This document shows positions 6,234 to 56,632 of a stretch of DNA of 64,000 nt, piece after piece. Source of the stretch: Clostridia bacterium (GTDB taxonomy: Bacteria; Bacillota; Clostridia; UMGS1883); contig JAZRFC010000081.1 of the NCBI GenBank assembly GCA_045661145.1, positions 7,338-71,337 of the forward strand, read 5' to 3'. The notes below the pieces were generated by a model, which saw only the letters and a list, made by a program, of their open reading frames with translations, was not told the DNA's origin and did not search any database. The translations under genes were made by a program, and so were the position numbers. Position 1 is the first letter of the stretch. The number at the start of each line of letters is the position of its first letter.

Positions 6234-6238
6234 ATCAA

Positions 6239-39024: not shown

Positions 39025-39065
39025 AAAAAATGGATTAAGACAAAGTTTGTCTTAATCCATTTTTT
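39025..39065. terminator. bidirectional terminator separating capA from the repressor gene
   Basis: AAAAAATGGATTAAGAC...GTCTTAATCCATTTTTT. Confidence 0.8.
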
Positions 39066-39067
39066 GT

Positions 39068-39664
39068 TTATAAAGTCGTATGGCACGCAACTGCTTTACC
39101 AAGAATCCGTATATTTTTACATTGTTTTTTTGTATATACCATTGGTTTGTATTTTGGGTTTTCGGAAATAAGAGTAACGGCATCATCGGAGATGTACACT
39201 CTTTTAAGTGTTGCTTCATCTTCTACCAGAACGGCAGCGATTTCACCGTCATCAACAGATTCCTGTTTGCGGATAAAAACTATATCCCCGTCTTTTATTC
39301 CTGCACCTATCATAGAGTCCCCCCTGACTCTTAAACAAAAGTCTGCCCGTGTATCATTTATCGGGGAGAAATATTCGCAATCTTCCGTTGCAAGTATGGG
39401 CTGACCTGCCGCAATTTTACCGAGTAATGGTAGTTTTTCGGTATTTGCAGAGCTTTCTAGATAGTCTTCCCAGCCCATAAGGTAGGCGGGGGAGCAATTA
39501 AATATTCTTGCCATCTCAAGCACTGTTGCCTGCTTGAGATTTTTTATTTCTCCGCTTTCATATCTTTGTGCGGTTGCCTCACGGACACCTAAAGCGGTTG
39601 CAACCTCTAAAAGTGTCATACCTGAGTCAAGACGGCATTTTTTTATTCTTTCATGTAATTTCAT
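39068..39664 (-). CDS. CI-like repressor: XRE HTH N-domain + S24 (LexA/CI-type) self-cleaving peptidase C-domain
   Basis: 198 aa. HTH MTLLEVATALGVREATAQRYESG. S24 motifs GDSM (catalytic Ser) and a later lysine context (ATLKRV). Possible AG cleavage site in KIAAGQP. Divergent from the phage late genes. Confidence 0.85.
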   Translation of the reverse strand: MKLHERIKKCRLDSGMTLLEVATALGVREATAQRYESGEIKNLKQATVLEMARIFNCSPAYLMGWEDYLESSANTEKLPLLGKIAAGQPILATEDCEYFSPINDTRADFCLRVRGDSMIGAGIKDGDIVFIRKQESVDDGEIAAVLVEDEATLKRVYISDDAVTLISENPKYKPMVYTKKQCKNIRILGKAVACHTTL

Positions 39665-39710
39665 AATAATTAGTCCTTTCGAAATGCTATTTTTAAGGGC
39701 TTCTGATGTT

Positions 39711-39739
39711 ATTATAACAGTAACTTACGTAAAAAGCAA
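39711..39739 (-). promoter_or_regulatory. leftward promoter of the repressor gene
   Basis: On the minus strand: TTGCTT, 17 nt spacer, TATAAT. Operator copy 1 lies inside the spacer. Confidence 0.55.
39723..39736. promoter_or_regulatory. operator copy 1 (ACTTACGTAAAAAG; palindromic core TTACGTAA)
   Basis: First of three copies of the same 12-14 nt motif within 92 bp. Confidence 0.6.
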
Positions 39740-39754
39740 GAAAAAATTTAAAAA

Positions 39755-39768
39755 ACTTACGTAAAAAG
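39755..39768. promoter_or_regulatory. operator copy 2 (ACTTACGTAAAAAG)
   Basis: Identical 14-mer that abuts the -35 of the rightward promoter. Confidence 0.6.
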
Positions 39769-39770
39769 TA

Positions 39771-39799
39771 TTGACAATCGACAAACACCCGATTATACT
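39771..39799 (+). promoter_or_regulatory. rightward (late/lytic) promoter
   Basis: TTGACA (39771-39776), 17 nt spacer, TATACT (39794-39799). Confidence 0.6.
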
Positions 39800-39800
39800 G

Positions 39801-39814
39801 ACTTACGTAAAACG
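39801..39814. promoter_or_regulatory. operator copy 3 (ACTTACGTAAAACG, part of the palindrome CTTACGTAAAACGTAAG)
   Basis: Lies directly after the -10, at the expected transcription start. Confidence 0.6.
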
Positions 39815-39856
39815 TAAGGATAATAGAAACAGCTTACATGAAAGGAAAGATAAAAA

Positions 39857-40105
39857 ATGAAGTATTACGGAAAATTTTGTATAGTATGCGGCAGGAGAAT
39901 TCCCGAACTTTCCTTAAGACGACGTACCTGCAGTGAATTTTGCCGTTCCCGTTACAAATGCGGATATGCTCCGTATAAAAACTATAAGTCATTGCCTTAT
40001 GATGATTTAACTTCCATTCAGGAGGAGGCACAGAAAATGGGAATGAGCTACGGAAAATATATGGCTATGAAATACAGGAAGGAGGGTGAAAACCTATGCC
40101 GATGA
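39857..40105 (+). CDS. small zinc-ribbon protein (CxxC...CxxxC), function unknown
   Basis: 82 aa. CIVCGRR...CSEFC followed by a basic helical tail (MSYGKYMAMKYRKEG). First gene after the rightward promoter, with a good SD. Confidence 0.6.
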   Translation: MKYYGKFCIVCGRRIPELSLRRRTCSEFCRSRYKCGYAPYKNYKSLPYDDLTSIQEEAQKMGMSYGKYMAMKYRKEGENLCR

Positions 40106-40296
40106 TGATGCAATGCCCTTTTTATAAAAGGGACAACTACCTTAAGCTTTATTGCGAGGGAGGAACATTAAAATTCCCCGATGCAAGTGCAAGGAGTGAG
40201 TATGTTTTGGGATACTGTGCAAACAGCTACAATTGGCGAAAATGTCCCATCGCCCATTGCCTTGAAAATTACTATTTCAGAAAGGAAGAAAAGTAA
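40096..40296 (+). CDS. small cysteine-rich protein, function unknown
   Basis: 66 aa with 5 Cys (CPFY..YCEGG..YCANS..KCPIAHC); overlaps its neighbours. Confidence 0.55.
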   Translation: MPMMMQCPFYKRDNYLKLYCEGGTLKFPDASARSEYVLGYCANSYNWRKCPIAHCLENYYFRKEEK

Positions 40297-40550
40297 TGGA
40301 ATATAAAAAGGAAATTGACCGCCGCGACAAAAAGATTGAGAATCTAAAAAAGGAAATAAAGCTACGTGAAGAAGAAATAGAGGCAATGCATCAGCTTCTC
40401 GACTGTGCGGCAGCAAATCTTATGCTTGCGATCAAAGAAAAAACAGTAAAAATCTCAAAAAAAGAGGTAAGTGAGGCTCTGGGAAAATTCCATCTTCGTG
40501 CAAAGGATGACGGAAACGGAAATTACCTGCTGGAGATACTTGAAGAATGA
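40296..40550 (+). CDS. small coiled-coil protein, function unknown
   Basis: 84 aa, charged heptad-like N-terminus. TAATG and ATGA overlaps with the flanking genes. Confidence 0.55.
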   Translation: MEYKKEIDRRDKKIENLKKEIKLREEEIEAMHQLLDCAAANLMLAIKEKTVKISKKEVSEALGKFHLRAKDDGNGNYLLEILEE

Positions 40551-41968
40551 ACATAATCTGGACCCCACAACCAAGGCAGAAAGAATTTATGAAACGCAGA
40601 GAACACGAAGCACTCTACGGCGGTGCGGCAGGAGGAGGGAAAAGCGACTGTGCCATTGCCGAGGCACTCCGTCAGGTGCATATCCCTCATTACAGAGGAC
40701 TTATCCTGAGAAAAACATATCCGCAGCTTTCGGAAATGGTGGACAGAAGCAGGGAAATATACCTTCCTGCATTTCCCGATGCAAAGTACAACGACCAGAA
40801 ACACTCCTGGACATTCCCAAGCGGTGCAAAAATATATTTCGGTGCAATGCAGCATACCAAGGACAGAACGAACTATCAGGGTAAAAGGTACGACTTTATT
40901 GACTTTGACGAGCTGACTCATTTTACATGGGATGAATACAGCTATCTGTTTTCCAGAAACCGCCCCAACGGACCGGGGACAAGATGTTACATCCGTGCTC
41001 AGGCAAATCCGGGCGGTATTGGTCACGGATGGGTAAAGGAGAGGTTTATTACGCCTGCTCCGCCTATGACTCCTATTCATGAGGATGTCAAAATAACATT
41101 CCCCGACGGCAAAAGTGAAATAAGACGGCAGAGCAGGGTTTTTGTTCCCTCAAGTATTTTTGACAACAAAATCCTTATGGAAAATGACCCTGAATACATA
41201 ACCCGCCTTGCATCTCTTCCCGAAAATGAGAAAAGGGCGCTTTTATATGGTGATTGGGACAGCTTCTCAGGGCAGGTTTTTACCGAATGGAGAAACAACC
41301 CTGATGGCTACTCCACAAGGAAGAATACCCATGTAATTCCACCTTTCAAAATACCTCATTCGTGGAAAATATACCGTGGCTTTGACTTTGGTTATTCCCG
41401 TCCTTTTTCAGTAGGGTGGTACGGAGTGGACCACGACGGCAGGCTTTACCGCATACGGGAACTTTACGGTTGTACGGGAACTCCAAACGAGGGGGTACGA
41501 TGGGAACCGGGGGAAATTGCAAAAAAAATAAAAGCCATTGAAAACGAGGACATTAACCTTAAGGGAAAATATATATACGGCATAGCCGACCCTTCAATTT
41601 TTGACGAGAGCAGAGGCGAAAGTGTTGCCGTAATGATGGAAAGGCAGGGTATATTCTTCGAAAAGGCTGACAACACCCGTGTTGCAGGAAAAATGCAGCT
41701 TCATAACCGACTTGCCTTTGATGAAAACGGGATACCGATGCTTTATGTTTTCAGCACCTGCAAGCACTTTATAAGAACGATTCCCTCCCTTGTGTATAGC
41801 GAGGTCGATGTGGAGGATATTGACACAACTCAGGAGGACCATATCTATGACGAGGTCAGATACATTGCAATGACAAACCCCATAAATCCGCCGAAAAAAG
41901 AAAGCCCGGTAAAAATATATAACCCATTGGAGGAGGATTCTTACGGAGAATACAATTTTTACAGATAA
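40547..41968 (+). CDS. terL: terminase large subunit
   Basis: 473 aa. Walker A YGGAAGGGKS, Walker B YDFIDFDE, C-terminal nuclease-like region (..DHIYDEVRY). Confidence 0.9.
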   Translation: MNIIWTPQPRQKEFMKRREHEALYGGAAGGGKSDCAIAEALRQVHIPHYRGLILRKTYPQLSEMVDRSREIYLPAFPDAKYNDQKHSWTFPSGAKIYFGAMQHTKDRTNYQGKRYDFIDFDELTHFTWDEYSYLFSRNRPNGPGTRCYIRAQANPGGIGHGWVKERFITPAPPMTPIHEDVKITFPDGKSEIRRQSRVFVPSSIFDNKILMENDPEYITRLASLPENEKRALLYGDWDSFSGQVFTEWRNNPDGYSTRKNTHVIPPFKIPHSWKIYRGFDFGYSRPFSVGWYGVDHDGRLYRIRELYGCTGTPNEGVRWEPGEIAKKIKAIENEDINLKGKYIYGIADPSIFDESRGESVAVMMERQGIFFEKADNTRVAGKMQLHNRLAFDENGIPMLYVFSTCKHFIRTIPSLVYSEVDVEDIDTTQEDHIYDEVRYIAMTNPINPPKKESPVKIYNPLEEDSYGEYNFYR

Positions 41969-41996
41969 TGAAAAAATTGCCGATAAACTTTTAGGA

Positions 41997-42257
41997 GTGC
42001 TTGATGAGGCGATAAACGACAAAAAACAATTCTACCGATATATCGTAAAAGAGAAGAACGGTTCAGACAGCGGAGAAGAGGAGCGTATATTCGGTAAAAT
42101 GGATATGCAGGCACTCAATAATGCCATAAAGGCACTTGACTCCCTGACCGAAATAAAAAAAGTCATAACAGGAGAAACATCCCGTACGGAAACAAACGGA
42201 AAAGAAGAACAGGAAACGGGAGTAGTAATACTTCCCGAAGTGGAGGAAGATGAATGA
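41997..42257 (+). CDS. hypothetical small acidic protein
   Basis: 86 aa ORF between terL and portal. GTG start is uncertain; the end overlaps the portal ATG. Confidence 0.4.
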   Translation: MLDEAINDKKQFYRYIVKEKNGSDSGEEERIFGKMDMQALNNAIKALDSLTEIKKVITGETSRTETNGKEEQETGVVILPEVEEDE

Positions 42258-43894
42258 AATTAACTGAATTTTTAAAGGAAAAAGAAACCGCGTCCTTAAG
42301 GCGGAAAATAGGAAAAGAGGAAATTGCCGTTGCCGCAGGAGTCTTGCGTGATTACAAAAACTCCAAATCGTCTTTGGAGGGAAGAATTATCGAGGATGAA
42401 CAATGGTGGAGATTAAGGCATTGGGAAACTTTTGGAAAGGAGCAGGATAAAGGTAAAACGAAAAGCGTCAGTGCGTGGCTTTTTAACACTATTACAAGTA
42501 AACACGCCGATGCAATGGACTCCTTTCCTGATGCAAGCGTCCTTCCAAGGGCAAGAGATGACGAAGAGGAGGCAAAGCTTCTTTCAGGGATTTTGCCTGC
42601 CCTTATGGAACATAACAATTTCGAAGAAATCTATTCAAACAATTGGTGGTACAAGCTGAAGCACGGATGCTGTGCCTATGGAGTTTTCTGGAACAGCGAG
42701 GCGGAAAACGGCTTAGGTGACATACAGATTAAGAAGATTGACCTTCTTAATATTTTCTGGGAGCCGGGCGTAAACGATATACAAAAAAGCAGAAACCTTT
42801 TTATTGTTGATTTAAAGGATTCGGATGTTCTGGAGAGCGAATACCCCTCTCTCCGCGGAAAGAATCTCGGCAGTGCAATTGATGTAAAGCAGTACATATA
42901 TGACGATACAGTAGATGTATCAAATAAGGTGCTGGTAGTTGATTGGTACTATAAGCTCCGTAATTCCGACGGTAAAACAGTTCTTCATTACTGCAAATTT
43001 GTAGGGGACAATGTACTTTTTGCCTCAGAAAATGAAGAAGAATACAAGGATTGCGGATGGTATGACCACGGCGAATATCCCATAGTCCTTGACAGCCTTT
43101 TTCCCGAGGAGGGAACTCCCGTGGGTTTTGGCTTTGTAGCTGTCACGAAAAATCCGCAGATGTACATTGATAAGCTTAATGATGTTATTTTAGATAATGC
43201 TCTTATGGCGGCAAAACCCAGATATTTTGCTAAAATCTCCGCCGGGGTGAATGAACAAGAATTTTTAGATTGGTCAAGACCTATTGTTCACGTGGAGGGA
43301 GATATAAACGAGGAAAGACTCCGCCCCATTGGTGTCAGTCAGCTCCCTCCTGCCTGCACAAATATCCTGCAGATGAAGATAAACGAACTAAAGGAAACAA
43401 GCTCTAACAGCGACTTTAACCGTGGCAGCGCAGGAGGCGGAGTAACCGCAGCATCAGCCATTGCGGCACTTCAGGAAGCAGGCAATAAAATGAGCCGTGA
43501 TATGCTCAAGGCAACTTACAGGGCATACACCACAATAAATTATTTGTGCATAGAGCTGATTCGTCAGTTCTATACGGAAACAAGGTGTTTTCGCATAACA
43601 ACGGCAGACGGCGGATACAGTTTTTCCGATTACAGTAATAAAAATCTTAAGGCAGTTAAAAACGGGGACAGCCTCTACCGCAAGCCGGTTTTCGATATTG
43701 CGGTGAAAACGCAGAAAAAGAGTCCATACACAAGACTTGCACAGAATGAACTTGCAAAGGAGCTTTTCAGATTGGGGTTTTTCAATCCCCAAAATTCTGC
43801 ATGTGCATTGGCGGCACTTGAAATAATGGACTTTGAGGGTAAACGAGCCGTGGAAGAAAAAATAAGGGAACTTTCACAGAATGAAAGGGTGTAA
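42254..43894 (+). CDS. portal protein
   Basis: 546 aa, position directly after terL and before scaffold and MCP. Size and alpha/beta composition fit a portal. No database check was possible. Confidence 0.75.
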   Translation: MKLTEFLKEKETASLRRKIGKEEIAVAAGVLRDYKNSKSSLEGRIIEDEQWWRLRHWETFGKEQDKGKTKSVSAWLFNTITSKHADAMDSFPDASVLPRARDDEEEAKLLSGILPALMEHNNFEEIYSNNWWYKLKHGCCAYGVFWNSEAENGLGDIQIKKIDLLNIFWEPGVNDIQKSRNLFIVDLKDSDVLESEYPSLRGKNLGSAIDVKQYIYDDTVDVSNKVLVVDWYYKLRNSDGKTVLHYCKFVGDNVLFASENEEEYKDCGWYDHGEYPIVLDSLFPEEGTPVGFGFVAVTKNPQMYIDKLNDVILDNALMAAKPRYFAKISAGVNEQEFLDWSRPIVHVEGDINEERLRPIGVSQLPPACTNILQMKINELKETSSNSDFNRGSAGGGVTAASAIAALQEAGNKMSRDMLKATYRAYTTINYLCIELIRQFYTETRCFRITTADGGYSFSDYSNKNLKAVKNGDSLYRKPVFDIAVKTQKKSPYTRLAQNELAKELFRLGFFNPQNSACALAALEIMDFEGKRAVEEKIRELSQNERV

Positions 43895-43898
43895 AAAT

Positions 43899-44612
43899 AT
43901 GAAGAAAAATGATAAAAAGGATATTATCTCTGCCGAAAGCGCGCAGGCAGAGGGAAATATAAATGCTGAAAAAACTGCGGAAGTCAGCAATCCGCAAACG
44001 GGCGATGAAAAAAGCTTTGCCGCCGGAAGCACAAGGGACAAGGAAAAAGAATTTGATGCCCTCATTGAAAACGAATACAAGGAACAGTTTTCAAAAAAGG
44101 TGCAGAAAATCATCAGCAAAAGACTCAGGGAGGTGAAAAATTTGAAGGAAGAAAATATGAGGAACGCAGAAAACAAGGAAGAAATTCTAAGAAGACTTGC
44201 TCTGGAAAACAACTTCCTTAAGAAGCGTCACGAGAATGAGCTTCAGCTTATGAAGCTTCGTGGCGAGGCGCAGAAACTCAGAAAGCAAGCGGCAGAAACC
44301 AAGGAGGTTTATCCCGAATTTGACTTTGAAAAGGAGATAAAAAATCCTGAATTTATGAGACTTCTCAAGCTTGGTGTAGGTGTTAAAAACGCATACGAGG
44401 TTGCAAATATCGATGCAATCCTTGAAAACAACACAAAAGCTGCGGAAAAAAAGGTCGTTGATTCAATCCGTCTTAAGGGTAACAGACCCGTTGAAAACGG
44501 AAGTGAGGGTGCATCGGGCATTCTTCTTTCTGGCAATGCATCCAAGCTTTCCAGAAAGGAAAGATCAGAGCTTGCAAGAAGAGCTGCCAAGGGCGAAAGA
44601 ATCAGCCTTTAA
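43899..44612 (+). CDS. capsid scaffolding protein
   Basis: About 237 aa, highly charged (K/E-rich) helical protein between the portal and major capsid genes. Confidence 0.7.
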   Translation: MKKNDKKDIISAESAQAEGNINAEKTAEVSNPQTGDEKSFAAGSTRDKEKEFDALIENEYKEQFSKKVQKIISKRLREVKNLKEENMRNAENKEEILRRLALENNFLKKRHENELQLMKLRGEAQKLRKQAAETKEVYPEFDFEKEIKNPEFMRLLKLGVGVKNAYEVANIDAILENNTKAAEKKVVDSIRLKGNRPVENGSEGASGILLSGNASKLSRKERSELARRAAKGERISL

Positions 44613-44640
44613 AAACTATAAAAAAATGGAGGACTAATTA

Positions 44641-45666
44641 ATGTATAAGTTTAATTTGCAGCATTTTGCTGCAGGCGATGTTGTTAATACGACAGCAGGC
44701 ATTACAAATGCCAATACGGGAGAAAACACTCCCTATAACGGAGACGGCGGTCTTTCGGGTGAAATGAAGATTTACTACTCCGACTATCTTATTGATATGG
44801 CGGAACCCAAGCTGGTCCATGACCAGTTCGGTCAGAAGTGCCCTATCCCGCAAAAAGGCGGTAAGACAATTGAATTTCGCAAGTACGACCCTCTTCCCAA
44901 GATGACAACTCCTCTTATGGAGGGCGTTACACCTGAAGGCCAGAAGCTTGATATGAAGACAGTATCTGCAGAGGTTAAGCAGTTCGGCGGTTTCATTGAG
45001 CTTTCCGATATTCTTTTGCTTACAGCCATTGACAATAATCTTGTTCAGGCTACAAAGCTTCTCGGCGGTCAGGCAGGCAGAACTCTTGACACTATTACAA
45101 GAGAGGTTCTTGCGGGCGGTACAAACGTACAGTTTGCAGAAGGTCAGGTTGACAGCCGTGATGCTCTTGTGGGTGGTCAGGAAGAAGGCAACCACTACCT
45201 TACCGTTGATGCGATAAGACGTGCGGTAAGATACCTTAAGAAGATGAATGCCGAAACAATCAACGGCAGTTACGTGGGTATTATTCATCCCGATGCTTCT
45301 TATGACCTTATGAGCGACCCCAAGTGGATAAATGTAAAGACTTACTCCGACCCCGAGGGTATCTATCAGGGAGAAATCGGTAAGATTGAAAATGTCCGCT
45401 TTGTGGAAACCTCCGAAGCAAAGATTTTCGAGGGTGAGGGAAAAGACGGTGTTGATGTGTACGCAACCCTTATCATCGGCGATAATGCTTATGGCACAAC
45501 CGAAATTTCCGGCGGCGGTCTTCAGCATATCGTCAAGCAGCTTGGCTCTGCAGGTACGTCAGACCCTCTCAACCAGCGTGCAACCGCAGGCTGGAAGGCA
45601 ACCAAGGCGGCTGTAAGACTTGTTGAACCCTATATGGTTCGTATCGAAACAGCCTCAAGCTTCTGA
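44641..45666 (+). CDS. major capsid protein (HK97 fold; resembles the N4-gp56-type family from memory)
   Basis: 341 aa. N-terminal (M)YKFNLQHFA motif typical of this MCP family. Strong SD, strongest codon bias in the cluster, hairpin directly downstream. Confidence 0.8.
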   Translation: MYKFNLQHFAAGDVVNTTAGITNANTGENTPYNGDGGLSGEMKIYYSDYLIDMAEPKLVHDQFGQKCPIPQKGGKTIEFRKYDPLPKMTTPLMEGVTPEGQKLDMKTVSAEVKQFGGFIELSDILLLTAIDNNLVQATKLLGGQAGRTLDTITREVLAGGTNVQFAEGQVDSRDALVGGQEEGNHYLTVDAIRRAVRYLKKMNAETINGSYVGIIHPDASYDLMSDPKWINVKTYSDPEGIYQGEIGKIENVRFVETSEAKIFEGEGKDGVDVYATLIIGDNAYGTTEISGGGLQHIVKQLGSAGTSDPLNQRATAGWKATKAAVRLVEPYMVRIETASSF

Positions 45667-45685
45667 TAAAGAACAAAATGAAAAT

Positions 45686-45712
45686 CCATCAGTCGGCAGG
45701 ACCGACTGATGG
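45686..45712 (+). other. 11-bp perfect stem-loop after the capsid gene (no U-tract)
   Basis: CCATCAGTCGG-CAGGA-CCGACTGATGG. Confidence 0.7.
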
Positions 45713-45737
45713 AACATTTGAAAGGAGTAAATAAATT

Positions 45738-46001
45738 ATGGCGACAAATAAAGAAAAAAAGGTTGACGGAAACACATTGGTGGAAATTGAGCTTTTCCGT
45801 GATAACAAGGACTACAAGGACGATGTGTTCGTAGCGGTAAACGGCGAAAGCTGTGTTATTGCACGCGGTAAGAAGGTAATGGTGAAAAAGAAGTTTGCCG
45901 ATGTAATTGCACAGTCTATGAGTCAGGATGTAAAGACAGCAAGACTTATGGATAATAAGTCCGATGAATTTTTCACGGAAGCCACCGCAAGAAACATATA
46001 A
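45738..46001 (+). CDS. hypothetical small virion-associated protein
   Basis: 87 aa with a strong SD (AAAGGAG), between MCP and the collagen-like protein. Confidence 0.55.
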   Translation: MATNKEKKVDGNTLVEIELFRDNKDYKDDVFVAVNGESCVIARGKKVMVKKKFADVIAQSMSQDVKTARLMDNKSDEFFTEATARNI

Positions 46002-46016
46002 AAGGAGGGCTTTTAT

Positions 46017-47485: not shown

Positions 47486-47497
47486 GGAGGGGATAAG

Positions 47498-49273: not shown

Positions 49274-49274
49274 G

Positions 49275-49469: not shown

Positions 49470-50457
49470 CAAAGAAACCGACTATCAATCAAAAATTAAC
49501 GAGGCAGTATCCAAAGGCGATTACGAAAGTGCAGCAAAGTATGAGCAGAGCAGAAATGAAAAGATTGACGGCGAAAATTTAGGCTACGAAAAGACAAATC
49601 GTTATTCGGGCTGGCTTGATAAAACCGACTATTCAAATGTTCTCAGAAAGCAGATGTCATCAGGAGCATCAAAAAATGATGTTTCCGAAACCTTGAAAAA
49701 GCGTATTTCAAAGGCAACCGGAACAGACGGTCTTACTCAATATGCTTACGATGACGTTTATGACCAGGCAATTCGCTACATAATGGAAAAAAGCTCCTAC
49801 GGAGAAAGACCGCAGTATAAAAATTCCTACGAAAGCGAAATTTCAAAGATTTTGGAAAGACTTACGAAAATAAAAGAATTTTCCTACAATCCATATGAAG
49901 ACGAGCTTTATGAATTTTACAAACAGCAGTATCTTCGTGAAGGAAGCAGGGCAATGGAGGATCTGTTGGGCGAGCTTTCCGCTTCTACGGGAGGTATAGC
50001 ATCAAGCTATGCTGTAAGTGCCGCCGCTCAGGCAAGAGAAAACTATAACCACAAGCTTACAGACAAGATTCCCGAGCTTTATGAGGCTGCATATGAACAA
50101 TACCTTGACGGAATTGATACGGATGAAAGCATCTTAAAAATTATTCAGGCATTGTCAGACGGAGAGTACGAAAAATATCTTGACAGTATGAATATTTACA
50201 ACAAAGACAGAGAGCTTTACAACAAGGAGAGAGAACTCTATAACAAGGAAAAAGAATTTGAGTACAAGGTAAATGCTGCCGAAGAGGAAGATGAATATAA
50301 CCGTAATCAGGACATGATTGATACTGCCCTGACGAAGTGGAAGAATTTAGGCTACCTTGATGAAGAAAGTGCAAAAATATTGGGACTTCCGGCAGGACTT
50401 CATACCACTGACTACGACTATAAGAAAGCACAGCAGTACAAAATTTACAGCAGATAA
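49459..50457 (+). CDS. hypothetical helical virion/internal protein with a 9-aa tandem repeat
   Basis: 332 aa, strong SD. YNKDRELYNKERELYNKEKEF is three tandem 27-nt units at about 50187-50265. Confidence 0.6.
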   Translation: MGYNKETDYQSKINEAVSKGDYESAAKYEQSRNEKIDGENLGYEKTNRYSGWLDKTDYSNVLRKQMSSGASKNDVSETLKKRISKATGTDGLTQYAYDDVYDQAIRYIMEKSSYGERPQYKNSYESEISKILERLTKIKEFSYNPYEDELYEFYKQQYLREGSRAMEDLLGELSASTGGIASSYAVSAAAQARENYNHKLTDKIPELYEAAYEQYLDGIDTDESILKIIQALSDGEYEKYLDSMNIYNKDRELYNKERELYNKEKEFEYKVNAAEEEDEYNRNQDMIDTALTKWKNLGYLDEESAKILGLPAGLHTTDYDYKKAQQYKIYSR

Positions 50458-50512
50458 ATCTGTTTAAAACACAAAAAACCCCGTGTGATGCATCCCGAAA
50501 GTAAAAAACTAC

Positions 50513-50541
50513 TTGCACAAATGCGAGTAATCGAGTATAAT
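50513..50541 (+). promoter_or_regulatory. own promoter of nfnAB
   Basis: TTGCAC (50513-50518), 17 nt spacer, TATAAT (50536-50541). Confidence 0.6.
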
Positions 50542-50575
50542 TGAATTTAGATTGTTTATTAAGGGATGAATTTAT

Positions 50576-51418
50576 ATGTACAGAATTGCTGAAAAGACGG
50601 TGCTTAACCCCACCGTTACCAAAATGGTTGTAGAAGCTCCCCTTATTGCGAAGAAGGCGGAACCCGGACAGTTTATAATTTTCAGGGTATCGGAGGATGG
50701 AGAGAGAGTTCCTCTTACAATTGCCGACTATGACCGTGAAAAGGGAACAGTAACTATAATATTTCAGGTAGCAGGTGCATCCACAATGGAGCTTAACGCT
50801 CTTAATGAGGGTGATTTCATCTGTGATTTTGCAGGCCCTCTCGGAACTTCCAGCAAGATTGAAAATCTCAAAAAGGTTTGTGTTGTAGGCGGTGGAGTGG
50901 GATGTGCCATAGCGTACCCCGTTGCAAAGAAGCTTCACGAAAACGGATGTGAAGTACACGTAGTGACAGGCTTCAGAAATAAAGATTTGGTGATTCTGGA
51001 AAAGGAATTTTCTGCGGTGAGCGACATAATGAAAATTATGACCGATGACGGAAGCTACGGCGAAAAAGGTCTTGTCACAAATGCCCTGGAAGAGCTTATA
51101 AATGCAGGCAATGATTACGACGAGGTTATTGCAATCGGACCCCTTGTTATGATGAAATTTGTGTGTCTTACCACAAAAAAATACGGTATCAAAACCACAG
51201 TTTCAATGAATCCCATTATGGTAGACGGAACGGGAATGTGTGGAGGATGCCGTCTTACGGTAGGCGGTGAAACCAAGTTTGCCTGCGTTGACGGTCCTGA
51301 TTTTGACGGACATCAGGTGGACTTTGATGAAGCTATGAAGCGTAATGGAATATACAAGGAATTTGAAGCACATAAAAGAGAAGAAACCTGCAACCTCTTC
51401 AAAAAGGAGGTAATGTGA
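50576..51418 (+). CDS. nfnA: NADH-dependent reduced ferredoxin:NADP+ oxidoreductase subunit A (FAD/[2Fe-2S], PyrK-like)
   Basis: 280 aa. Close recalled similarity along the whole length to Thermotoga NfnA (..ERVPLTIADYD.., ..NPIMVDGTGMCGGCRLTVGGETKFACVDGPDFDGH..). Confidence 0.88.
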   Translation: MYRIAEKTVLNPTVTKMVVEAPLIAKKAEPGQFIIFRVSEDGERVPLTIADYDREKGTVTIIFQVAGASTMELNALNEGDFICDFAGPLGTSSKIENLKKVCVVGGGVGCAIAYPVAKKLHENGCEVHVVTGFRNKDLVILEKEFSAVSDIMKIMTDDGSYGEKGLVTNALEELINAGNDYDEVIAIGPLVMMKFVCLTTKKYGIKTTVSMNPIMVDGTGMCGGCRLTVGGETKFACVDGPDFDGHQVDFDEAMKRNGIYKEFEAHKREETCNLFKKEVM

Positions 51419-51419
51419 T

Positions 51420-52808
51420 ATGACTAATATGAGTCCTAAAAAAAATCCAATGCCTTCTCTTGACCCCAAAGAAAGAAGAACGAACTTCGATGAGGTTGCC
51501 ACGGGATATACCTATGAGATGGCAATAGAAGAGGCGAAAAGATGCTTTGCCTGTAAGCACAAGCCATGCAGGAGCAAGTGCCCCGTTGGAATTGACATTC
51601 CTGCGTTTATTGAAAAACTTGCGGCACAGGACATAAAGGGTGCATATGAAATTATTTCAGAAAGCAGCACTCTTCCTGCCGTATGCGGAAGAGTGTGTCC
51701 TCAGGAAAGTCAGTGCGAAAGTGCTTGCGTCCGCGGTATTAAAGGTGAGAGTGTGGCAATCGGCAGACTTGAAAGGTTTGTTGCCGATTACTGCAGAGAG
51801 CATTATAAGGAAGAAGCCCAAAAGCCTCAGTTAAATGGCAAAAAGGTGGCTATTATAGGTTCAGGCCCTTCGGGACTTACTGCTGCAGGCGACCTTGCGA
51901 AGCTTGGCTACGAGGTAACGGTTTTTGAAGCACTTCATACTCCGGGTGGTGTTCTTGTTTACGGAATCCCCGAATTCAGACTTCCCAAAACGATTGTCAG
52001 TGAAGAAATTGAAAAGCTTCAGGCTATGGGTGTGAAAATTGAAACCAATGTAATAATCGGTAAAACAATTACCGTTGATGAGCTTTTTGATGATGGATTT
52101 TCCGCAGTTTATATAGCCAGCGGGGCAGGACTCCCAAGCTTTATGAATATAAAGGGAGAGAGTCTTAACGGAGTTTACAGTGCAAACGAATACCTTACCA
52201 GAATAAATCTTATGAAAGCATATCTGCCCGATTCCAAAACGCCCGTTAAAAAGAGTAAGCGCGTTGCAGTAGTAGGCGGCGGAAACGTGGCGATGGATGC
52301 GGCTCGCAGTGCCGTAAGGCTCGGGGCTGAAGCAGTGTACATTATTTATAGAAGAGGTATGGAAGAGCTTCCTGCAAGAAATGAAGAAATCGAGCACGCC
52401 CACGAAGAGGGGGTTATTTTCAGAACTCTGACTGCCCCTGTAGAAATACTCGGCGACGATAATGGAAATGTCAGTGGTATAAGATGTGTCCGTATGGAGC
52501 TTGGAGAACCTGATGAAAGCGGAAGAAGAAGACCGGCTCCGATAGAGGGTAGTGAATATGACCGTGAAGTGGACACTGTAATTATGGCGATAGGAACAAG
52601 TCCCAATCCTCTTATCCGCAGTACTACACCCGGCTTGGAAGTTAACAGCCGTGGCTGTATAGTAACCGACGGAGAAGACGGAAAAACCTCCCGTGAAGGT
52701 GTGTATGCCGGCGGTGATGCAGTTACCGGTGCCGCAACGGTTATACTTGCAATGGGTGCAGGAAAGAGTGCGGCAAAGGCAATTGATAATTATTTAAAAA
52801 ATAAATAA
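51420..52808 (+). CDS. nfnB: NfnB subunit (GltD-like; two [4Fe-4S] + FAD/NADPH)
   Basis: 462 aa. RCFACKHKPC..CPVGIDIP, AVCGRVCPQESQCESACVRG, GSGPSGLTAAGDLAKLGY, GGDAVTGAATVILAMGAGK. Start overlaps the nfnA stop region. Confidence 0.88.
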   Translation: MTNMSPKKNPMPSLDPKERRTNFDEVATGYTYEMAIEEAKRCFACKHKPCRSKCPVGIDIPAFIEKLAAQDIKGAYEIISESSTLPAVCGRVCPQESQCESACVRGIKGESVAIGRLERFVADYCREHYKEEAQKPQLNGKKVAIIGSGPSGLTAAGDLAKLGYEVTVFEALHTPGGVLVYGIPEFRLPKTIVSEEIEKLQAMGVKIETNVIIGKTITVDELFDDGFSAVYIASGAGLPSFMNIKGESLNGVYSANEYLTRINLMKAYLPDSKTPVKKSKRVAVVGGGNVAMDAARSAVRLGAEAVYIIYRRGMEELPARNEEIEHAHEEGVIFRTLTAPVEILGDDNGNVSGIRCVRMELGEPDESGRRRPAPIEGSEYDREVDTVIMAIGTSPNPLIRSTTPGLEVNSRGCIVTDGEDGKTSREGVYAGGDAVTGAATVILAMGAGKSAAKAIDNYLKNK

Positions 52809-52839
52809 AAAACTTAAAAAGTGTAACGACTTTCGACAA

Positions 52840-52865
52840 CCCCCGTGATATATATATCACGGGGG
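52840..52865 (+). terminator. GC-rich hairpin after nfnB (weak U-tract), nested in an 11-bp outer inverted repeat (52816-52826 / 52883-52893)
   Basis: CCCCCGTGATAT/ATATCACGGGGG followed by TTTGTGTTTGTGGG. Outer repeat is AAAAAGTGTAA / TTACACTTTTT. Confidence 0.6.
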
Positions 52866-52912
52866 TTTGTGTTTGTGGGTTATTACACTTTTTATTTGTA
52901 AAAGGAGAAAAT

Positions 52913-53956
52913 ATGAAGGATATAGTAATTAAAGTCAGCGGACAGTTTATTTCAAAAAACAGCAAAAATGCAGGTGTGGCAGGAGATGCAAATTCCTGCA
53001 GTATAACATTCTGCTTTGACAGCAGTTGGACAGGGTTTTCCAAAAGAGTTCTCTGGCGTGACAGCAAGGGAGAAAACCTTACAAGCGTAATCCTTGTTCC
53101 CGATATAGAAAACCAAAGTGAGTATAAGACCTCTATTCCACCCTGCATCACAAAAACGCAAGGTTGGTGTACATTCACAGTTGAGGGATATTTTGAATCA
53201 AACCCCGAAATTGTAAATAAGTCTGTAAGTGACAGTCTTTTCGTGGGTTATTCCGACCTTAGCGACGAAATCGTTCCCATAACTCCAAGCGAGGCAATGC
53301 AGCTTCAAAGTGAATTTGAAGCCCTGATGCCCCGTGTGAAAAGCCTGATGGAGGAAACGCAAAAAAGTATAACTTCCTACTGTGAGAATCACAATGTCTG
53401 GGAGGATTACAACAGTGCCACTCTTTATAACCCAGGAAACAAGGTTTTCTATAAAGGCTGCGCTTATGTCTGCATCAAGGAAAATCAGGGAGTATCTCCC
53501 GAAAACAGTGATTTCTGGCAGATAATTGCAGAACGTGGACAGCGGGGACAGAAAGGAAATCAGGGACCGCAGGGTATTCAGGGCGACAGAGGTGAAAAAG
53601 GCGAGAAGGGTGACAAAGGCGACAAAGGAGAAAAGGGCGACAGAGGTGACAAGGGAGATAAAGGTATAAACGGAAGTGTCGTTCCTGCTAACGGTTTTTA
53701 TTCCTTTAGCGTAGATGAAAACGGAGATTTGTGGCTGTATTATCCCGATTCTGGAAATAAACCCGAAGCAACACTTAACGAAAACGGTGAACTTATTCTG
53801 ACTGTTGATGGAGAAACCGATTACTCCTTTAATGTCGGCAAGGTTAAAGGGGAAAAAGGTGATTTCCCCCAAAAAGGAGTAGATTACTGGACAGAAAACG
53901 ATAAAGCTGAAATAAAAGCCTATGTAAAAGATGCTATTTTAGGAGGTGCGTGGTAA
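52913..53956 (+). CDS. tail fibre-like protein with collagen-like GXY repeat and CBM5/12-like motif
   Basis: 347 aa. 15 G-X-Y triplets (GQRGQKGNQGPQGIQGDRGEKGEKGDKGDKGEKGDRGDKGDKGING). YNPGNKVFYKGCAYVCIKENQGVSPENSDFWQ resembles a carbohydrate-binding CBM5/12 signature. Confidence 0.7.
   Translation: MKDIVIKVSGQFISKNSKNAGVAGDANSCSITFCFDSSWTGFSKRVLWRDSKGENLTSVILVPDIENQSEYKTSIPPCITKTQGWCTFTVEGYFESNPEIVNKSVSDSLFVGYSDLSDEIVPITPSEAMQLQSEFEALMPRVKSLMEETQKSITSYCENHNVWEDYNSATLYNPGNKVFYKGCAYVCIKENQGVSPENSDFWQIIAERGQRGQKGNQGPQGIQGDRGEKGEKGDKGDKGEKGDRGDKGDKGINGSVVPANGFYSFSVDENGDLWLYYPDSGNKPEATLNENGELILTVDGETDYSFNVGKVKGEKGDFPQKGVDYWTENDKAEIKAYVKDAILGGAW
53537..53674 (+). repeat. coding GXY collagen-like triplet repeat
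   Basis: Read directly from the translated sequence. Confidence 0.9.
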
Positions 53957-54729
53957 TGAGCGTAAATGAGAAAATGACTGCTATTGCAGATAATATCCGC
54001 AGTAAGACAGGCGGTACAGAAGCACTTACACTTGATGATATGGCAAGCGGTGTAAATGAAGTATATGAGGCAGGAAAAAAAGAGGAGTATAACGAGTTTT
54101 GGGATTCTTTTCAGAATAACGGAAGCAGACTTGACTATAGACGGGCTTTTGCAGGAAATAGTTGGAGTCCCAGTATCTTTAAACCTAAATACCCCATAAA
54201 ACCTACAAATGCAGAACAAATGTTTTATTTATCGACTTATCTAACTTGTGACATTACAGAGGTTTCAGATATTGATTTTTCATCATCTACAAATTTACTC
54301 CAAACTTTTCAAAATTTTTACGGAAATAGGATTGGAGTTTTGGACACAAGAAAAGCAACAAATATTACTAATATGGTCGTTAATTGTTCCCGCTTAGTAA
54401 CGATTGATAAAATTATCGTAGGGGAAAATTTACCTTCCACGTTAAGCTTTAATAACGATTCACGTCTAGAAAATGTCACCATAGAGGGTATCCTTGTAAG
54501 AAGTGTAAATGCAGCAGCGTGTCCTCTTACAGTGGCGAGTATGAAAAGTATTATATCTGCACTGAAAGACTATGCAGGAACAGACAGCGAATACACTTAC
54601 ACAGGAACCTTTAAGGCATCAGCTTTCAACGCCCTTGAATTCGAAGGTGCAACGGCAGAATATAACGGGGTAGCTTGCACGTGGGCGGAACTGATAGATA
54701 ATAAAAAGTGGAATCTTACATTGGCATAA
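53956..54729 (+). CDS. hypothetical fibre/receptor-binding-associated protein (leucine-rich-repeat-like segments)
   Basis: TAATG overlap with the upstream fibre gene, SD AGGAGGTG. About 257 aa. Confidence 0.55.
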   Translation: MSVNEKMTAIADNIRSKTGGTEALTLDDMASGVNEVYEAGKKEEYNEFWDSFQNNGSRLDYRRAFAGNSWSPSIFKPKYPIKPTNAEQMFYLSTYLTCDITEVSDIDFSSSTNLLQTFQNFYGNRIGVLDTRKATNITNMVVNCSRLVTIDKIIVGENLPSTLSFNNDSRLENVTIEGILVRSVNAAACPLTVASMKSIISALKDYAGTDSEYTYTGTFKASAFNALEFEGATAEYNGVACTWAELIDNKKWNLTLA

Positions 54730-54740
54730 GGAGTGGTGAA

Positions 54741-55019
54741 ATGTATAAACGAATTAAAACAAAAATAGAGCACGCAACCTTTAAAGCGCGAACAGATGCC
54801 GACGGAAATATATTGTCTTATCGTATCAGTCCGAATGAGGGGTACAAGCTTCACGAAGTAACACTTGATGAACCTGTTGTTGACGAAAACGGAAACGAGA
54901 CAGGAGAAAAGAAACTTGGATTTACGAAATCGTATGTAACGGCAGGTGTCGGATACGATTTTGAGAAAAATGAAAGAGAAATTTATGCGGAGGAGGTAAA
55001 AAATGAACACAACAATTAA
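54741..55019 (+). CDS. hypothetical small protein
   Basis: 92 aa, ATG behind AAGGAGTGGTG, precedes the holin. Confidence 0.5.
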   Translation: MYKRIKTKIEHATFKARTDADGNILSYRISPNEGYKLHEVTLDEPVVDENGNETGEKKLGFTKSYVTAGVGYDFEKNEREIYAEEVKNEHNN

Positions 55020-55431
55020 AAATGCCCTACTTGCCCTGTGTGCAGGTATGGGAAGCGTTTTTGCGGAAGCCTTTGGCGGTTGGGACTCTTTTTTAAAGGC
55101 ATTGGTTCTTTTTATGATTGTAGATTACATAACGGGAATGACCGTTGCCCTTGTTTTTCACAAGTCTGAAAAAACAAAGAGCGGAGGTGCTTCTAGTGCA
55201 GTAGGGTTTAAAGGTATTGTAAAAAAAATATGTATCTTTTTCCTTGTAGCATTAGCAGTAAGAGTTGACCTTATCACCGGAACAAGCTATGTGCGTAATG
55301 CTACAATATTCTTTTTCTTAGGCAACGAGGGGCTTAGTGTCATTGAAAATATCGGGCGTATGGGTGTTAAGTATCCTGCTTTTTTAAAGAAAGCATTGGA
55401 AACCTTAAAAGAGAAAAGCGAAGAAACATAA
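55003..55431 (+). CDS. holin (phage_holin_4 / TcdE-like family)
   Basis: 142 aa, three TM segments, charged C-terminus, directly upstream of the amidase. Confidence 0.8.
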   Translation: MNTTIKNALLALCAGMGSVFAEAFGGWDSFLKALVLFMIVDYITGMTVALVFHKSEKTKSGGASSAVGFKGIVKKICIFFLVALAVRVDLITGTSYVRNATIFFFLGNEGLSVIENIGRMGVKYPAFLKKALETLKEKSEET

Positions 55432-55474
55432 TTTTTAAAATTAAACATATTATGTACAAGGAAGGATTGATAAG

Positions 55475-56212
55475 ATGAGTGAGTTTAAAAAATATAATAT
55501 AGAAGAATTTGAAAAGTACATAACCTCGCTTAATGTTTCACGCGGAATAAAGCTTGTTCAGCTTCACCATACCTATATTCCCGGCTATAAGCAGTTTACA
55601 GGGGACAATCATATTCAACTGCAGACGGGAATGAGAAATTACCACATAAACACCAACGGCTGGTCAGACATAGCACAGCATTTTACGATTTTCCCTGATG
55701 GTGCAATAGTGACGGGAAGAAGTATGGAAATGATTCCTGCAGGCATAAAGGGGGGAAACGCAGGTGCTATATGTATAGAATGCGTAGGAAATTTTGATAA
55801 GTGCGGAGATGTGATGAGAAAAGAACAGAAAGATGCAATCGTGAGTGCGGTAAAAATCCTTATGGATAAATTCTCTCTTCAGCCTGAAAATGCAATTGTA
55901 TACCACGGCTGGTGGACAGCGTCAGGAAAGAAATTGGGTGATTACACAAAAGGAAAATCCGCCAAAACCTGCCCTGGTACAAATTTCTTCGGTGGAAATA
56001 CGAGAAAGGATTTTGAGGAGAATTTGCTACCGCTTATTGTCGGATGCAGAAAGAAAATGCTGGAAACAGCTAATGATATTACATGGGAGCTAAATCATAC
56101 ATATTTTCCTATTGATGATGTTGATAGATTTAAGAAAATTCTTGATGAAGCAAAAAAAAATAACAGCCCTCTATATTGGGGCTATTATAAGCTTGTGAAC
56201 AGAATAAAATAA
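55475..56212 (+). CDS. N-acetylmuramoyl-L-alanine amidase (Amidase_2/PGRP type endolysin)
   Basis: 245 aa. VQLHHTY.., NGWSDIAQHFTIFPDG.., ICIECVGNFD motifs. Confidence 0.8.
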   Translation: MSEFKKYNIEEFEKYITSLNVSRGIKLVQLHHTYIPGYKQFTGDNHIQLQTGMRNYHINTNGWSDIAQHFTIFPDGAIVTGRSMEMIPAGIKGGNAGAICIECVGNFDKCGDVMRKEQKDAIVSAVKILMDKFSLQPENAIVYHGWWTASGKKLGDYTKGKSAKTCPGTNFFGGNTRKDFEENLLPLIVGCRKKMLETANDITWELNHTYFPIDDVDRFKKILDEAKKNNSPLYWGYYKLVNRIK

Positions 56213-56417
56213 ATATTTACAAACAGACATAAAGCGGAGCAGGTATTTTAAAAATACAGAAATAGTTTGACAAACTTTTGACAAACATTCATGTCATATA
56301 GAGCAACATGCGCCATCAGTTTGAACGAAGAGAAACAATCCAGCGAATTGTTTCTCCGTTCAAAGTCCCTGTGAGCTGAAAACCGCATTATTATGCGGAA
56401 TTTCAGCCACCTTCAGG

Positions 56418-56482
56418 ATGGCGCACCATAAGAAAACAGCATCTACTTAAAAGCAGATGCTGTTTTCTTATGGTGCGCCATC
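56418..56482. terminator. 28-bp perfect inverted repeat: a bidirectional terminator core whose outer arms include the last 12 nt of tRNA-Lys
   Basis: GATGGCGCACCATAAGAAAACAGCATCT - ACTTAAAAGC - AGATGCTGTTTTCTTATGGTGCGCCATC. Confidence 0.85.
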
Positions 56483-56546: not shown

Positions 56547-56551
56547 AAATA

Positions 56552-56627: not shown

Positions 56628-56632
56628 AAAAT

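Follow-up and report, generated by a model that had tools for sequence, protein, structure and literature searches.

A conserved locus for podovirus-like particles in gut and rumen Clostridia, probably a domesticated phage derivative

The DNA analysed (the window) is a stretch of 64,000 nucleotides from a Clostridia bacterium (GenBank assembly GCA_045661145.1, contig JAZRFC010000081.1, positions 7,338 to 71,337), in which one block of 17.1 kb (39068-56212) holds 25 close-packed open reading frames (ORFs) for a repressor, a short-tailed phage-like particle and lysis proteins. The late ORFs all lie on the plus strand and are thus co-oriented, as the first-pass annotation of the window had it. 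This locus is probably a domesticated derivative of a podovirus like Bacillus phage Page and Paenibacillus phage API480, kept by the host as a chromosomal module for particle production in the manner of a gene transfer agent (GTA) or of PBSX. About 30 species-level genomes of Clostridia/Oscillospiraceae carry the element, which descends mainly by vertical inheritance and has every gene under purifying selection. GTA-like domesticated phages are a known kind; the present one is a new member, found widely, whose architecture and switch are its own.

Conservation and descent of the element

One genome per GTDB species was scanned with the capsid protein, which gave 56 loci (handles beginning with L denote loci compared). 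The same element, with the same order from repressor to amidase, was present in 33 of them, in metagenome-assembled genomes (MAGs) of Clostridia/Oscillospiraceae from ruminant and human guts. Gene copies not cut by contig ends were full length in 456 of 468 cases, and the other 12 look like edge or alignment-overhang artefacts. Ratios of non-synonymous to synonymous substitution (dN/dS) against the closest relatives were 0.03 for the large terminase (TerL), 0.03 for the portal and 0.04 for the major capsid protein (MCP), with a range of 0.01 to about 0.2 over all genes. Synonymous divergence (dS) of the element, 0.4-0.9 against L001, equalled that of the flanking housekeeping genes (flank dN/dS 0.03-0.06). 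Pairwise protein distances of TerL, portal and tail nozzle were correlated with those of host GltX (r 0.73-0.82; 0.88 for NfnB, a host protein encoded within the element), and these host-tracking distances, with the dS values, exclude that the orthologous loci are recent horizontal copies. In neighbour-joining trees the TerL and the portal of the element each formed one clade, with congruent subclades and apart from every phage-context homologue. Intactness, dN/dS, host-tracking divergence and trees together argue for vertical inheritance and selective maintenance, and against a recent prophage or a decaying remnant. A comparison of the interval between capA and the tRNA operon, proposed with the first-pass annotation, finds the locus present, syntenic and intact in about 30 species-level genomes, with no relative accumulating stop codons, so that it is not the remnant of a single strain; the proposal of a domesticated, short-tailed element that does not propagate itself gains support from this conservation, from the purifying selection and from the nozzle fold described below.

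Among the 23 loci that extend leftward, 19 share the host genes of the window (HD phosphohydrolase, GltX-type tRNA synthetase, capA), and in L021 GltX is present and capA missing. Left neighbours of the other four are NusA/RimP (L034), PNPase (L035), an ACT/metallo-beta-lactamase protein (L005) and an unannotated ORF (L040), and in two of the 19 (L029 and L041) an insert of 2-3 kb with an IS200-type transposase or a GH2 glycosidase gene lies between capA and the repressor. Right neighbours vary: ribosomal protein S20/ApbE, or in other species a glucosamine-6-P isomerase-family gene. Just right of the element in L019 (15681-16193), a phage Mu F-like N-terminal piece and a ribonuclease domain are combined in one ORF that resembles a polymorphic toxin.

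Gene content

Window proteins were searched against the Pfam, PHROGs and NCBIfam profile libraries. Without the nested nfnAB genes the element measures 14.8 kb. Its features are given below by window coordinates and strand, with protein lengths in amino acids (aa) and the evidence in brackets.

39030-39065, no strand: bidirectional hairpin terminator serving the converging capA (plus) and repressor (minus) genes; left edge of the element
39068-39664, minus: CI/LexA-like repressor, 198 aa, XRE helix-turn-helix (HTH) and S24 peptidase (PF01381 and PF00717, phrog_4; TIGR00498 lexA over the C-terminal half)
39665-39856, plus: genetic switch of 192 bp, promoter and operator-like palindromes
39857-40105, plus: s82, 82 aa, Cys-rich, zinc-ribbon-like, heads the late operon, possibly a regulator (weak DUF2116 treble-clef match)
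40096-40296, plus: s66, 66 aa, four invariant Cys, possibly a packaging or late-regulation factor (conservation)
40296-40550, plus: s84, 84 aa, helical, ATGA overlap with the start of TerL, candidate small terminase (TerS) with no DNA-binding domain (position, model)
40547-41968, plus: TerL, 473 aa (phrog_979, E 3e-64; PF03237, Terminase_6N; Walker A GGAAGGGKS)
41997-42257, plus: conserved ORF of 86 aa between TerL and portal (in all element loci; small ORF in the same place in API480 and Page)
42254-43894, plus: portal of P22/SU10 type, 546 aa (phrog_156, E 4e-79; PF16510, P22_portal; PF23899)
43881-44612, plus: scaffold by position, 243 aa (phrog_13908; same place in API480 and Page)
44641-45666, plus: MCP of the N4-gp56 family (HK97 fold class), 341 aa (TIGR04387, E 1e-95; phrog_1357)
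45685-45713, no strand: hairpin with a 13-bp stem right after the MCP stop, no T-run on the plus strand (API480 and Page have annotated terminators there)
45738-46001, plus: s87, conserved virion-module protein, 87 aa (phrog_15239; 41 invariant positions; homologues behind the MCP in all related phages)
46017-47138, plus: collagen-repeat fibre with a C-terminal DUF6273 domain, 373 aa (profile matches)
47114-47485, plus: protein of about 116-123 aa, candidate head-to-tail adaptor by position (phrog_12105; 126-aa ORF in the same place in API480)
47498-49273, plus: tail nozzle of podovirus type (beta-propeller), 591 aa (AlphaFold model and Foldseek)
49275-49469, plus: s64, conserved protein, 64 aa (in all element loci and the Faecalibacterium cluster)
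49459-50457, plus: p332, conserved virion-module protein, 332 aa, possibly an ejection or internal protein, closes module 1 (59 invariant positions)
50514-52867, plus: nested host nfnAB operon, promoter to terminator (profiles, conserved signals)
52913-53956, plus: collagen-repeat tail fibre, 347 aa, opens module 2 (phrog_5073, E 4e-21; PF01391)
53950-54729, plus: hypervariable protein, 259 aa, candidate receptor-binding or fibre-tip protein by position (31-61% identity among orthologues, dS saturated)
54708-55019, plus: protein of 103 aa (in several orthologous loci)
55003-55431, plus: holin, Phage_holin_4_1 (PF05105, E 4e-38; TIGR01593; dN/dS 0.03-0.05)
55475-56212, plus: N-acetylmuramoyl-L-alanine amidase endolysin (PF01510); right edge of the element
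56471-56709, minus: host tRNA-Lys/Thr/Asp operon (tRNA search), outside the element and marking its right boundary

The CI-like repressor, the three tiny ORFs (82, 66 and 84 aa), TerL, portal, MCP, fibres, holin and amidase named in the first-pass annotation are all backed by profile matches or ORF calls. Its reading of the block as a phage particle locus holds for most of it and fails for 50576-51418 and 51420-52808, a host nfnAB operon that it had missed. Both flanks were described correctly: the 46-bp spacer between capA and the repressor is a hairpin (ATGGATTAAGAC-AAAGTT-TGTCTTAATCCAT) with an A-run on one side and a T-run on the other, free of att-like repeats, and the right flank is a minus-strand operon of tRNA-Lys, tRNA-Thr and tRNA-Asp.

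Among the small proteins, s82 is kept in all element loci (dN/dS about 0.05), and s66 has the lowest dN/dS of the locus (0.005-0.014), being 100% identical in L001 and L036, with C7, C20, C41 and C50 invariant. Relatives of s66 stand upstream of the terminase in related phages (L007:3398-3607, L033:4030-4209, L042:489-644, L044:3511-3702), and s66 appears to belong to an unnamed family of small zinc-binding proteins linked with packaging or late control. The 373-aa fibre evolves fast (36-56% identity, dS saturated even against the closest relative); full-length homologues were present in every element locus, and non-syntenic phage loci gave at most partial matches of low identity. In related phages, as in the Faecalibacterium cluster (compared in the last section), homologues of p332 come after the nozzle, and the C-terminus of the scaffold is homologous to the Prp-domain 'scaffold' of that cluster. 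The hairpin behind the MCP gene is likely an RNA stabiliser or a partial stop, since it lacks a T-run on the plus strand.

No integrase, recombinase, primase, helicase, polymerase or antirepressor was found among the block ORFs with the three libraries, within the limited sensitivity of profiles for ORFs of 64-123 aa. Tape-measure, sheath and tube proteins were likewise without a match, and contractile-tail genes of the PBSX kind, baseplate genes included, were not found. The earlier claim that integrase, replication, tape-measure, sheath and tube genes are missing is therefore upheld, and the profile check for a hidden integrase or replication gene, suggested at that time, returned none. Nine block ORFs are without a family assignment, and NCBIfam gave no match for nine unannotated proteins. 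Between the switch and TerL lie only the three ORFs of 66-84 aa, compared with 13-25 kb of early and replication genes in related phages. A search for att-like direct repeats yielded only collagen repeats and chance matches, and no integrase was found in the flanks of about 30 orthologous loci. The whole block had no megablast match among 50,697 phage records, an Rfam scan gave nothing within the element, and sequence searches of the PDB (MCP; profiles of nozzle, s87 and p332) gave nothing significant. Neither the MCP nor the nozzle protein of the window had an exact database record.

Repressor and switch

In 27 orthologues of the repressor the Ala86-Gly87 cleavage site, Ser117 (in GDSM) and Lys154 (in LKRV) are invariant, and dN/dS is about 0.05. 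The rightward promoter into the late operon, TTGACA (39771) and TATACT (39799) spaced by 17 bp, agrees with the consensus at 11 of 12 positions. Operator-like CTTAC-N7-GTAAG palindromes are found at 39724-39740, 39802-39818 and 39833-39849, with a half-site at about 39756, so placed that they flank the -35 element and sit just past the -10 element. In an alignment of 27 orthologous loci, made by eye, this pattern of promoter and operators can be made out in nearly every one. We infer a LexA-like, RecA-stimulated derepression of the late operon. Cellular control would lie with this phage-derived, LexA-like repressor, which is predicted to answer host RecA; no host regulator site was identified.

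A second stretch of the window, 52805-52840 (AAAAAGTGTAACGACTTTCG(A/G)CAA(A)CCCCC), is close to the -35 side of the main promoter at 39750-39790 (AAAAAGTATTGAC(A/T)(A/T)TCG(A/G)CAAAC(A/C)CCC) and may be a duplicated promoter fragment. It precedes the inter-module hairpin and has counterparts in L023, L041, L051 and L052, without operators. The stretch at 52805-52840 is not claimed as a promoter, the likeness being partial, limited to the -35 side and to one subclade, and without operators.

Predicted particle parts

The 591-aa protein, described earlier as propeller-like, is modelled as a beta-propeller and is identified by this fold as the podovirus tail nozzle. The AlphaFold model (28 homologues, pLDDT 87) was compared with the PDB by Foldseek, and the top 29 matches were all podovirus portal-tail or tail-complex entries (E 1e-14 to 4e-7), among them P22 gp10, the T7 gp12 nozzle, the PhiM1 nozzle and the crAss001 muzzle as named proteins, and others including the Sf6, SU10, GP4 and Kp9 tail complexes. 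By the nozzle fold the encoded particle is podovirus-like in design, and a podovirus-type virion plan fits the P22/SU10-type portal, the nozzle, the collagen fibres and the adaptor assigned by position. The probable adaptor role of the ORF of about 120 aa is read from the gp11-gp12 gene order of phage T7.

In the model of s84 a long helix (residues 2-48) stands beside a shorter one and a beta-hairpin, and an HTH is absent; the protein carries a conserved LLDCAAAN motif. Foldseek found no PDB match for the model, and the sequence matched no TerS. A small-terminase role for s84 is a guess from its position and model.

The MCP begins with MYKFNLQHFA/AG (window 44641-44675), which resembles a Prp-type cleavage motif. 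We take this to be the motif at which the cysteine protease Prp cleaves ribosomal protein L27 and the capsid proteins of staphylococcal phage 80-alpha. Eleven orthologous loci (L010, L011, L018, L024, L026, L029, L034, L035, L039, L040, L056) have a slot of about 300 nt between portal and scaffold, and in L095 (the L056 locus), the only locus with gene calls checked, the slot (6092-6400) holds an annotated 102-aa Peptidase_Prp gene. The window and its subclade have neither the slot nor the Prp gene. The earlier statement that there is no prohead protease is thus right for the window and does not extend to the Prp-sized slot of the orthologous loci or to the Prp-type motif of the MCP; with the motif present and no Prp gene in the window, the capsid is presumably matured by the host's Prp.

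Most orthologous MCPs are longer (437-457 aa) because about 100 aa are inserted in frame behind residue 266 of the window protein (L013, L014, L017-L032 and others; for example L018:10001-11317; proteins P0010-P0025); the inserted part may be a surface or decoration domain. This insertion is missing from the window's subclade and from L010, L011 and L056. In L065 the C-terminal part of the MCP has a further interruption of about 1.1 kb.

A nested host operon between two modules

The genes at 50576-51418 and 51420-52808 are, by their profiles, a host oxidoreductase operon of the nfnAB type and not phage genes. The former is nfnA-like, a DHODB-type Fe-S/NAD-binding protein (PF10418 and PF00175; PRK06222 above the curated cut-off), and the latter is nfnB/gltA-like, an NADPH-dependent flavoprotein of the glutamate-synthase type (PF14691 and PF07992; TIGR01316 above the curated cut-off). 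The operon has its own sigma-70-like promoter (TGCACA-16-TATAAT, 50514-50541) and a strong hairpin terminator (52838-52867), both of them conserved in other species, and its dN/dS is 0.04.

In most species nfnAB lies between the two late modules; it is not there in L013, L014, L019 and L021. Between p332 and the gene of the second fibre, every locus carries a hairpin that is rich in GC and has a T-run. In L013, L014 and L019 the same hairpin directly follows p332, and in L021 the hairpin is a different one. The presence of the hairpin even in loci without nfnAB indicates that the two-module structure is ancestral and that nfnAB entered upstream of the terminator. The operon uses this ancestral inter-module hairpin as its terminator, and a half-copy of the left arm of the hairpin has been left behind after p332.

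Phage relatives and exchange of parts

Of the complete phages, Paenibacillus phage API480 (45 kb, MK533143) and Bacillus phage Page (40 kb, NC_022764) come nearest. They share with the element the series of small ORFs/TerS, TerL, a small ORF, portal, scaffold, MCP (35% identical), a small ORF, an ORF of about 125 aa and a tail protein of 660-730 aa, with holin and endolysin further on. They differ from it by an early/replication arm of 13-25 kb, in which DNA polymerase/primase/helicase or Rep/DnaD/DnaC/RecT/SSB form the replication module, and by a giant protein, 1600-1700 aa long. L057, a gut prophage with an 83% identical capsid protein, is another complete relative with a replication arm; it encodes a TerS-like protein with a helix-turn-helix and a giant one exceeding 2700 aa. 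Judged by gene content, the element retains only the late arm and the repressor of its phage relatives.

The check for a larger intact phage of the same type, proposed with the first-pass annotation, gave no phage with element-type TerL and portal in the GTDB species genomes or in IMG/VR. In IMG/VR the element type occurs only as pieces of 7-12 kb running from s82 to p332 (L062-L066), four of the five ending at p332; this trimming indicates that prophage callers cut the element at the host nfnAB genes.

Prophages with capsid genes 76-84% identical in nucleotide (nt) sequence co-occur with the element in three carrier assemblies. In one of them (MAG JAFTOF01) the L031 prophage and the L024 element are 84% identical over the capsid gene and 88% over the next gene (L031:10000-11564), and 91% over a 582-bp piece of the fibre region, from the region of the 259-aa gene (L031:4143-4724); the portal of the prophage is only 50% identical to that of the window. 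Phage capsid genes nest inside the capsid clade of the element. The nested capsid genes and the shared L031/L024 segments indicate that element and phages swap parts.

Proposed mechanism and alternative explanations

The LexA-like repressor would occupy three or four CTTAC-N7-GTAAG operators around the -35 element and position +1 of the strong rightward promoter. On DNA damage, activated RecA (RecA*) would stimulate self-cleavage at Ala86-Gly87 and so derepress the operon from s82 to p332. A procapsid would be formed from portal, scaffold and the N4-gp56-type capsid protein, with the propeptide cut by Prp, here the host's own. TerL, with one or more of the small proteins, would fill the heads with unexcised, unamplified chromosome; since the chromosome is the only packaging substrate available, the particles are proposed to carry host DNA. 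Adaptor, nozzle and collagen-like fibres would complete a short tail. The fibre-lysis module might be reached by read-through, by antitermination (the antiterminator being one of the small zinc-binding proteins) or from an unrecognised promoter, and holin and amidase would let the particles out.

Several points weigh against this account of a host-kept particle module. Particle making, DNA packaging and transfer are predictions from the genes. A strong terminator divides module 1 and nfnAB from the fibre-lysis module, and no second, operator-bearing promoter was found before that module, so that co-expression of the two modules is an assumption. No small terminase was identified among the element proteins, the s84 model having no structural match. 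The right flank is not conserved, nor is the left flank in four species, and inheritance is not purely vertical, given the exchange of capsid genes with resident prophages. The survey counts carriers of the element, and a metagenome scan with capA for sites lacking it gave one distant paralogue among the matches listed.

The particles might be made and yet serve something other than transfer: killing as by PBSX, programmed lysis that yields DNA or public goods, or interference with related podophages, for example by sequestering or exchanging their capsid parts. We hold this to be unlikely, though it deserves to be taken seriously. Regulation by a repressor with an SOS-type switch is PBSX-like, the genes for fibres and receptor binding show the very rapid evolution seen in arms races, three carriers hold related prophages, one of which shares capsid and fibre segments with the element, and the authors who described the Faecalibacterium GTA (FpGTA) leave a tailocin-like role open (PMC12946183). 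On the other side, TerL, portal and the packaging-associated small proteins rank with the most constrained genes (dN/dS 0.01-0.03), and constraint of this strength on TerL and portal is hard to account for unless DNA packaging matters. It also counts against a killing role that, to our knowledge, no killing particle of podovirus type has been described. A live temperate phage, with integration and replication hidden in unannotated proteins or borrowed from the host (Xer-type recombination, host replisome) and nfnAB as a passenger, is very unlikely. The nine ORFs without a family, the tRNA operon adjoining the element in the window genome and the complete lysogeny-type switch would suit it, but the unannotated ORFs either measure 64-123 aa or have positional homologues in phage virion modules, att repeats were not found, and the neighbours differ across species, which speaks against a single attB. 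Moreover, element divergence tracks the host with dS equal to flank dS, the 14.8 kb left without nfnAB compares with 40-45 kb in the relatives, and IMG/VR holds no free genome of the element type.

A defective phage or satellite that depends on a helper, its replication and mobilisation awaiting the infection or induction of a related full podophage, is highly improbable. Related prophages (76-84% capsid identity) do occur in three carrier assemblies, with two adjacent segments of 88-91% shared by L031, but most carriers show no such phage in the data retrieved. Known satellites, among them the capsid-forming phage-inducible chromosomal islands (cf-PICIs), retain their integrase and replication module, usually do without lysis genes and have a patchy distribution; the element has the opposite pattern, with no integrase or replication genes, lysis genes kept and a wide, syntenic distribution. 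As for a decaying, functionless remnant of a cryptic prophage, loss of integration and replication is indeed the usual first step of prophage decay, but 456 of 468 copies are intact across species whose synonymous sites are nearly or fully saturated, dN/dS is 0.01-0.2 in every gene, and promoter and operators are conserved, which makes decay next to incredible. A domesticated module for particle production, kept by the host, remains the probable explanation.

Other features near the element

The terminator hairpin of the minus-strand tRNA operon (56416-56480) takes the 3' acceptor end of tRNA-Lys into its stem (GGCGCACCA...TGGTGCGCC); the repeat was rejected as an att site, being inverted and not direct. 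A class II aminoacyl-tRNA synthetase gene (19025-20779) is preceded by a T-box leader (18773-18981, 97.8 bits), an ordinary host feature. A GC-skew switch near 7 kb was rejected as a replication origin; the genes there are PriA, YicC and MetY/MetA, without DnaA.

Significance

GTAs have been characterised in few lineages, and the first in human-gut commensals, also the first with a short tail, came from Faecalibacterium in 2026. Sequencing of virus-like particles (VLPs) has revealed heavy packaging of chromosomal DNA in Oscillospiraceae, with no locus assigned in the family, and the element is a concrete and widely conserved candidate. The events without an assigned locus comprise 'generalised transduction' of about 35 kb in Oscillospiraceae/F23-B02 and 'GTA' events of about 6 kb in Onthomonas (PMC12946183, Supplementary Data 1); that the element is the source of the ~35-kb or the ~6-kb events is speculation. 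As a tentative extension, the locus may be a second, independently domesticated GTA of podovirus type, fixed in a whole clade of Oscillospiraceae-like Clostridia from gut and rumen and set off by the SOS response via the retained phage switch, trading capsid and fibre genes with the phages of its hosts, housing nfnAB as a core redox operon, and perhaps underlying the unassigned Oscillospiraceae DNA of faecal VLPs.

The candidate trigger is explicit (a LexA-like repressor, mapped operators and one promoter), and if the proposal is true, GTA-type packaging would become predictable from genomes of uncultured gut and rumen Clostridia. The locus would also offer an independent case of phage domestication in which the switch was kept, the replication arm and the giant virion protein were lost, maturation came to depend on host Prp, and a host operon settled at the module boundary. 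For prophage-calling pipelines it is a caution, as pieces of the element stand in IMG/VR as viral genomes.

Comparison with known particle systems

Literature searches found no description of this element. Judged in the terms used for GTAs and viriforms (sensu Lang-Beatty; Kogay et al. 2022), it has head, tail and lysis genes in a cellular genome, shows no replication, integration or excision genes in the profile searches and evolves with its host, the capsid gene excepted. It resembles cf-PICIs in being a small element with terminase, portal, capsid and repressor. The cf-PICIs keep an integrase and a replication module, are without tails and usually without lysis genes, and are mobile and patchy; the traits peculiar to them (integrase, mobility, patchiness, no tail or lysis genes) are all missing from the element.

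PBSX of Bacillus subtilis is likewise a chromosomal set of structural and lysis genes in a Firmicute under a phage-type repressor. It is SOS-inducible (for the element this is only predicted), packages 13.4 kb of host DNA and does not propagate; unlike the element it is contractile-tailed and myovirus-like, about 28 kb long, with sheath, tube and tape-measure genes, and no homology to the element was seen. Its repressor Xre is not a self-cleaving S24 protein. Alphaproteobacterial GTAs of the RcGTA type share with the element vertical inheritance and purifying selection; in both, replication and integration genes have been lost, the attachment proteins evolve fast and host genes lie among the particle loci. 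The RcGTA-type agents are siphovirus-like, stand under host regulators (CtrA, GafA, quorum sensing) with no phage repressor, and belong to an unrelated protein lineage.

The closest parallel comes from Faecalibacterium prausnitzii, whose gene transfer agent FpGTA is podovirus-like (Borodovich et al., Nat Commun 2026; PMC12946183). Its operon I (10.5 kb) encodes a TerS without a DNA-binding domain, TerL, portal, a Prp-annotated scaffold, an N4-gp56 capsid protein and tail proteins, a second operon of 5.5 kb for fibre and lysis lies 125 kb away, and the particles, for which a tailocin-like role is considered possible, are about 40 nm in size, with 8.4-8.9 kb of packaged host DNA (PMC12946183). 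The first-pass annotation had expected a 341-aa MCP to build heads for well over 17 kb; this is unsafe, since FpGTA, whose capsid protein is likewise named after the N4-gp56 family, packs about 8.5 kb in heads of about 40 nm and the phage relatives 40-45 kb, so that capacity cannot be read from the MCP.

The Faecalibacterium cluster (L047/L058) is collinear with module 1 (TerL 65%, portal 48% and MCP 54% identical, then homologues of s87, nozzle, s64 and p332). We infer that L047 is FpGTA operon I from its gene order and NCBI product names; RCH50849.1 is not in the cluster listing. In Faecalibacterium langellae (L058:16053-21020) an ORF of 3375 aa (LPD3; MuF_C in L059) directly follows the cluster, and many small ORFs on the same strand precede it; the published description of FpGTA makes no mention of the 3375-aa ORF. 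Possibly this locus has more of a phage character than the publication suggests; alternatively, it could be a prophage related to FpGTA.

FpGTA and the element, the latter known from its genes, have in common chromosomal podovirus-like particle genes without replication or integration functions, a capsid protein of the N4-gp56 family, and fibre and lysis genes in a transcription unit of their own. They differ in that the two operons of FpGTA have about 125 kb between them, whereas the modules of the element are adjacent or parted only by nfnAB; in that the FpGTA scaffold has a Prp domain and the window has none; and in that no repressor or switch has been reported for FpGTA, whereas the element has a LexA-like repressor with operators. 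In the TerL, portal and MCP trees many phage-context sequences fall between the Faecalibacterium copies and the element, and the Faecalibacterium cluster is no nearer to the element than any phage. Trees, scaffold architecture, flanks and the lack of a reported repressor indicate that the element is a lineage separate from FpGTA and was probably domesticated independently.

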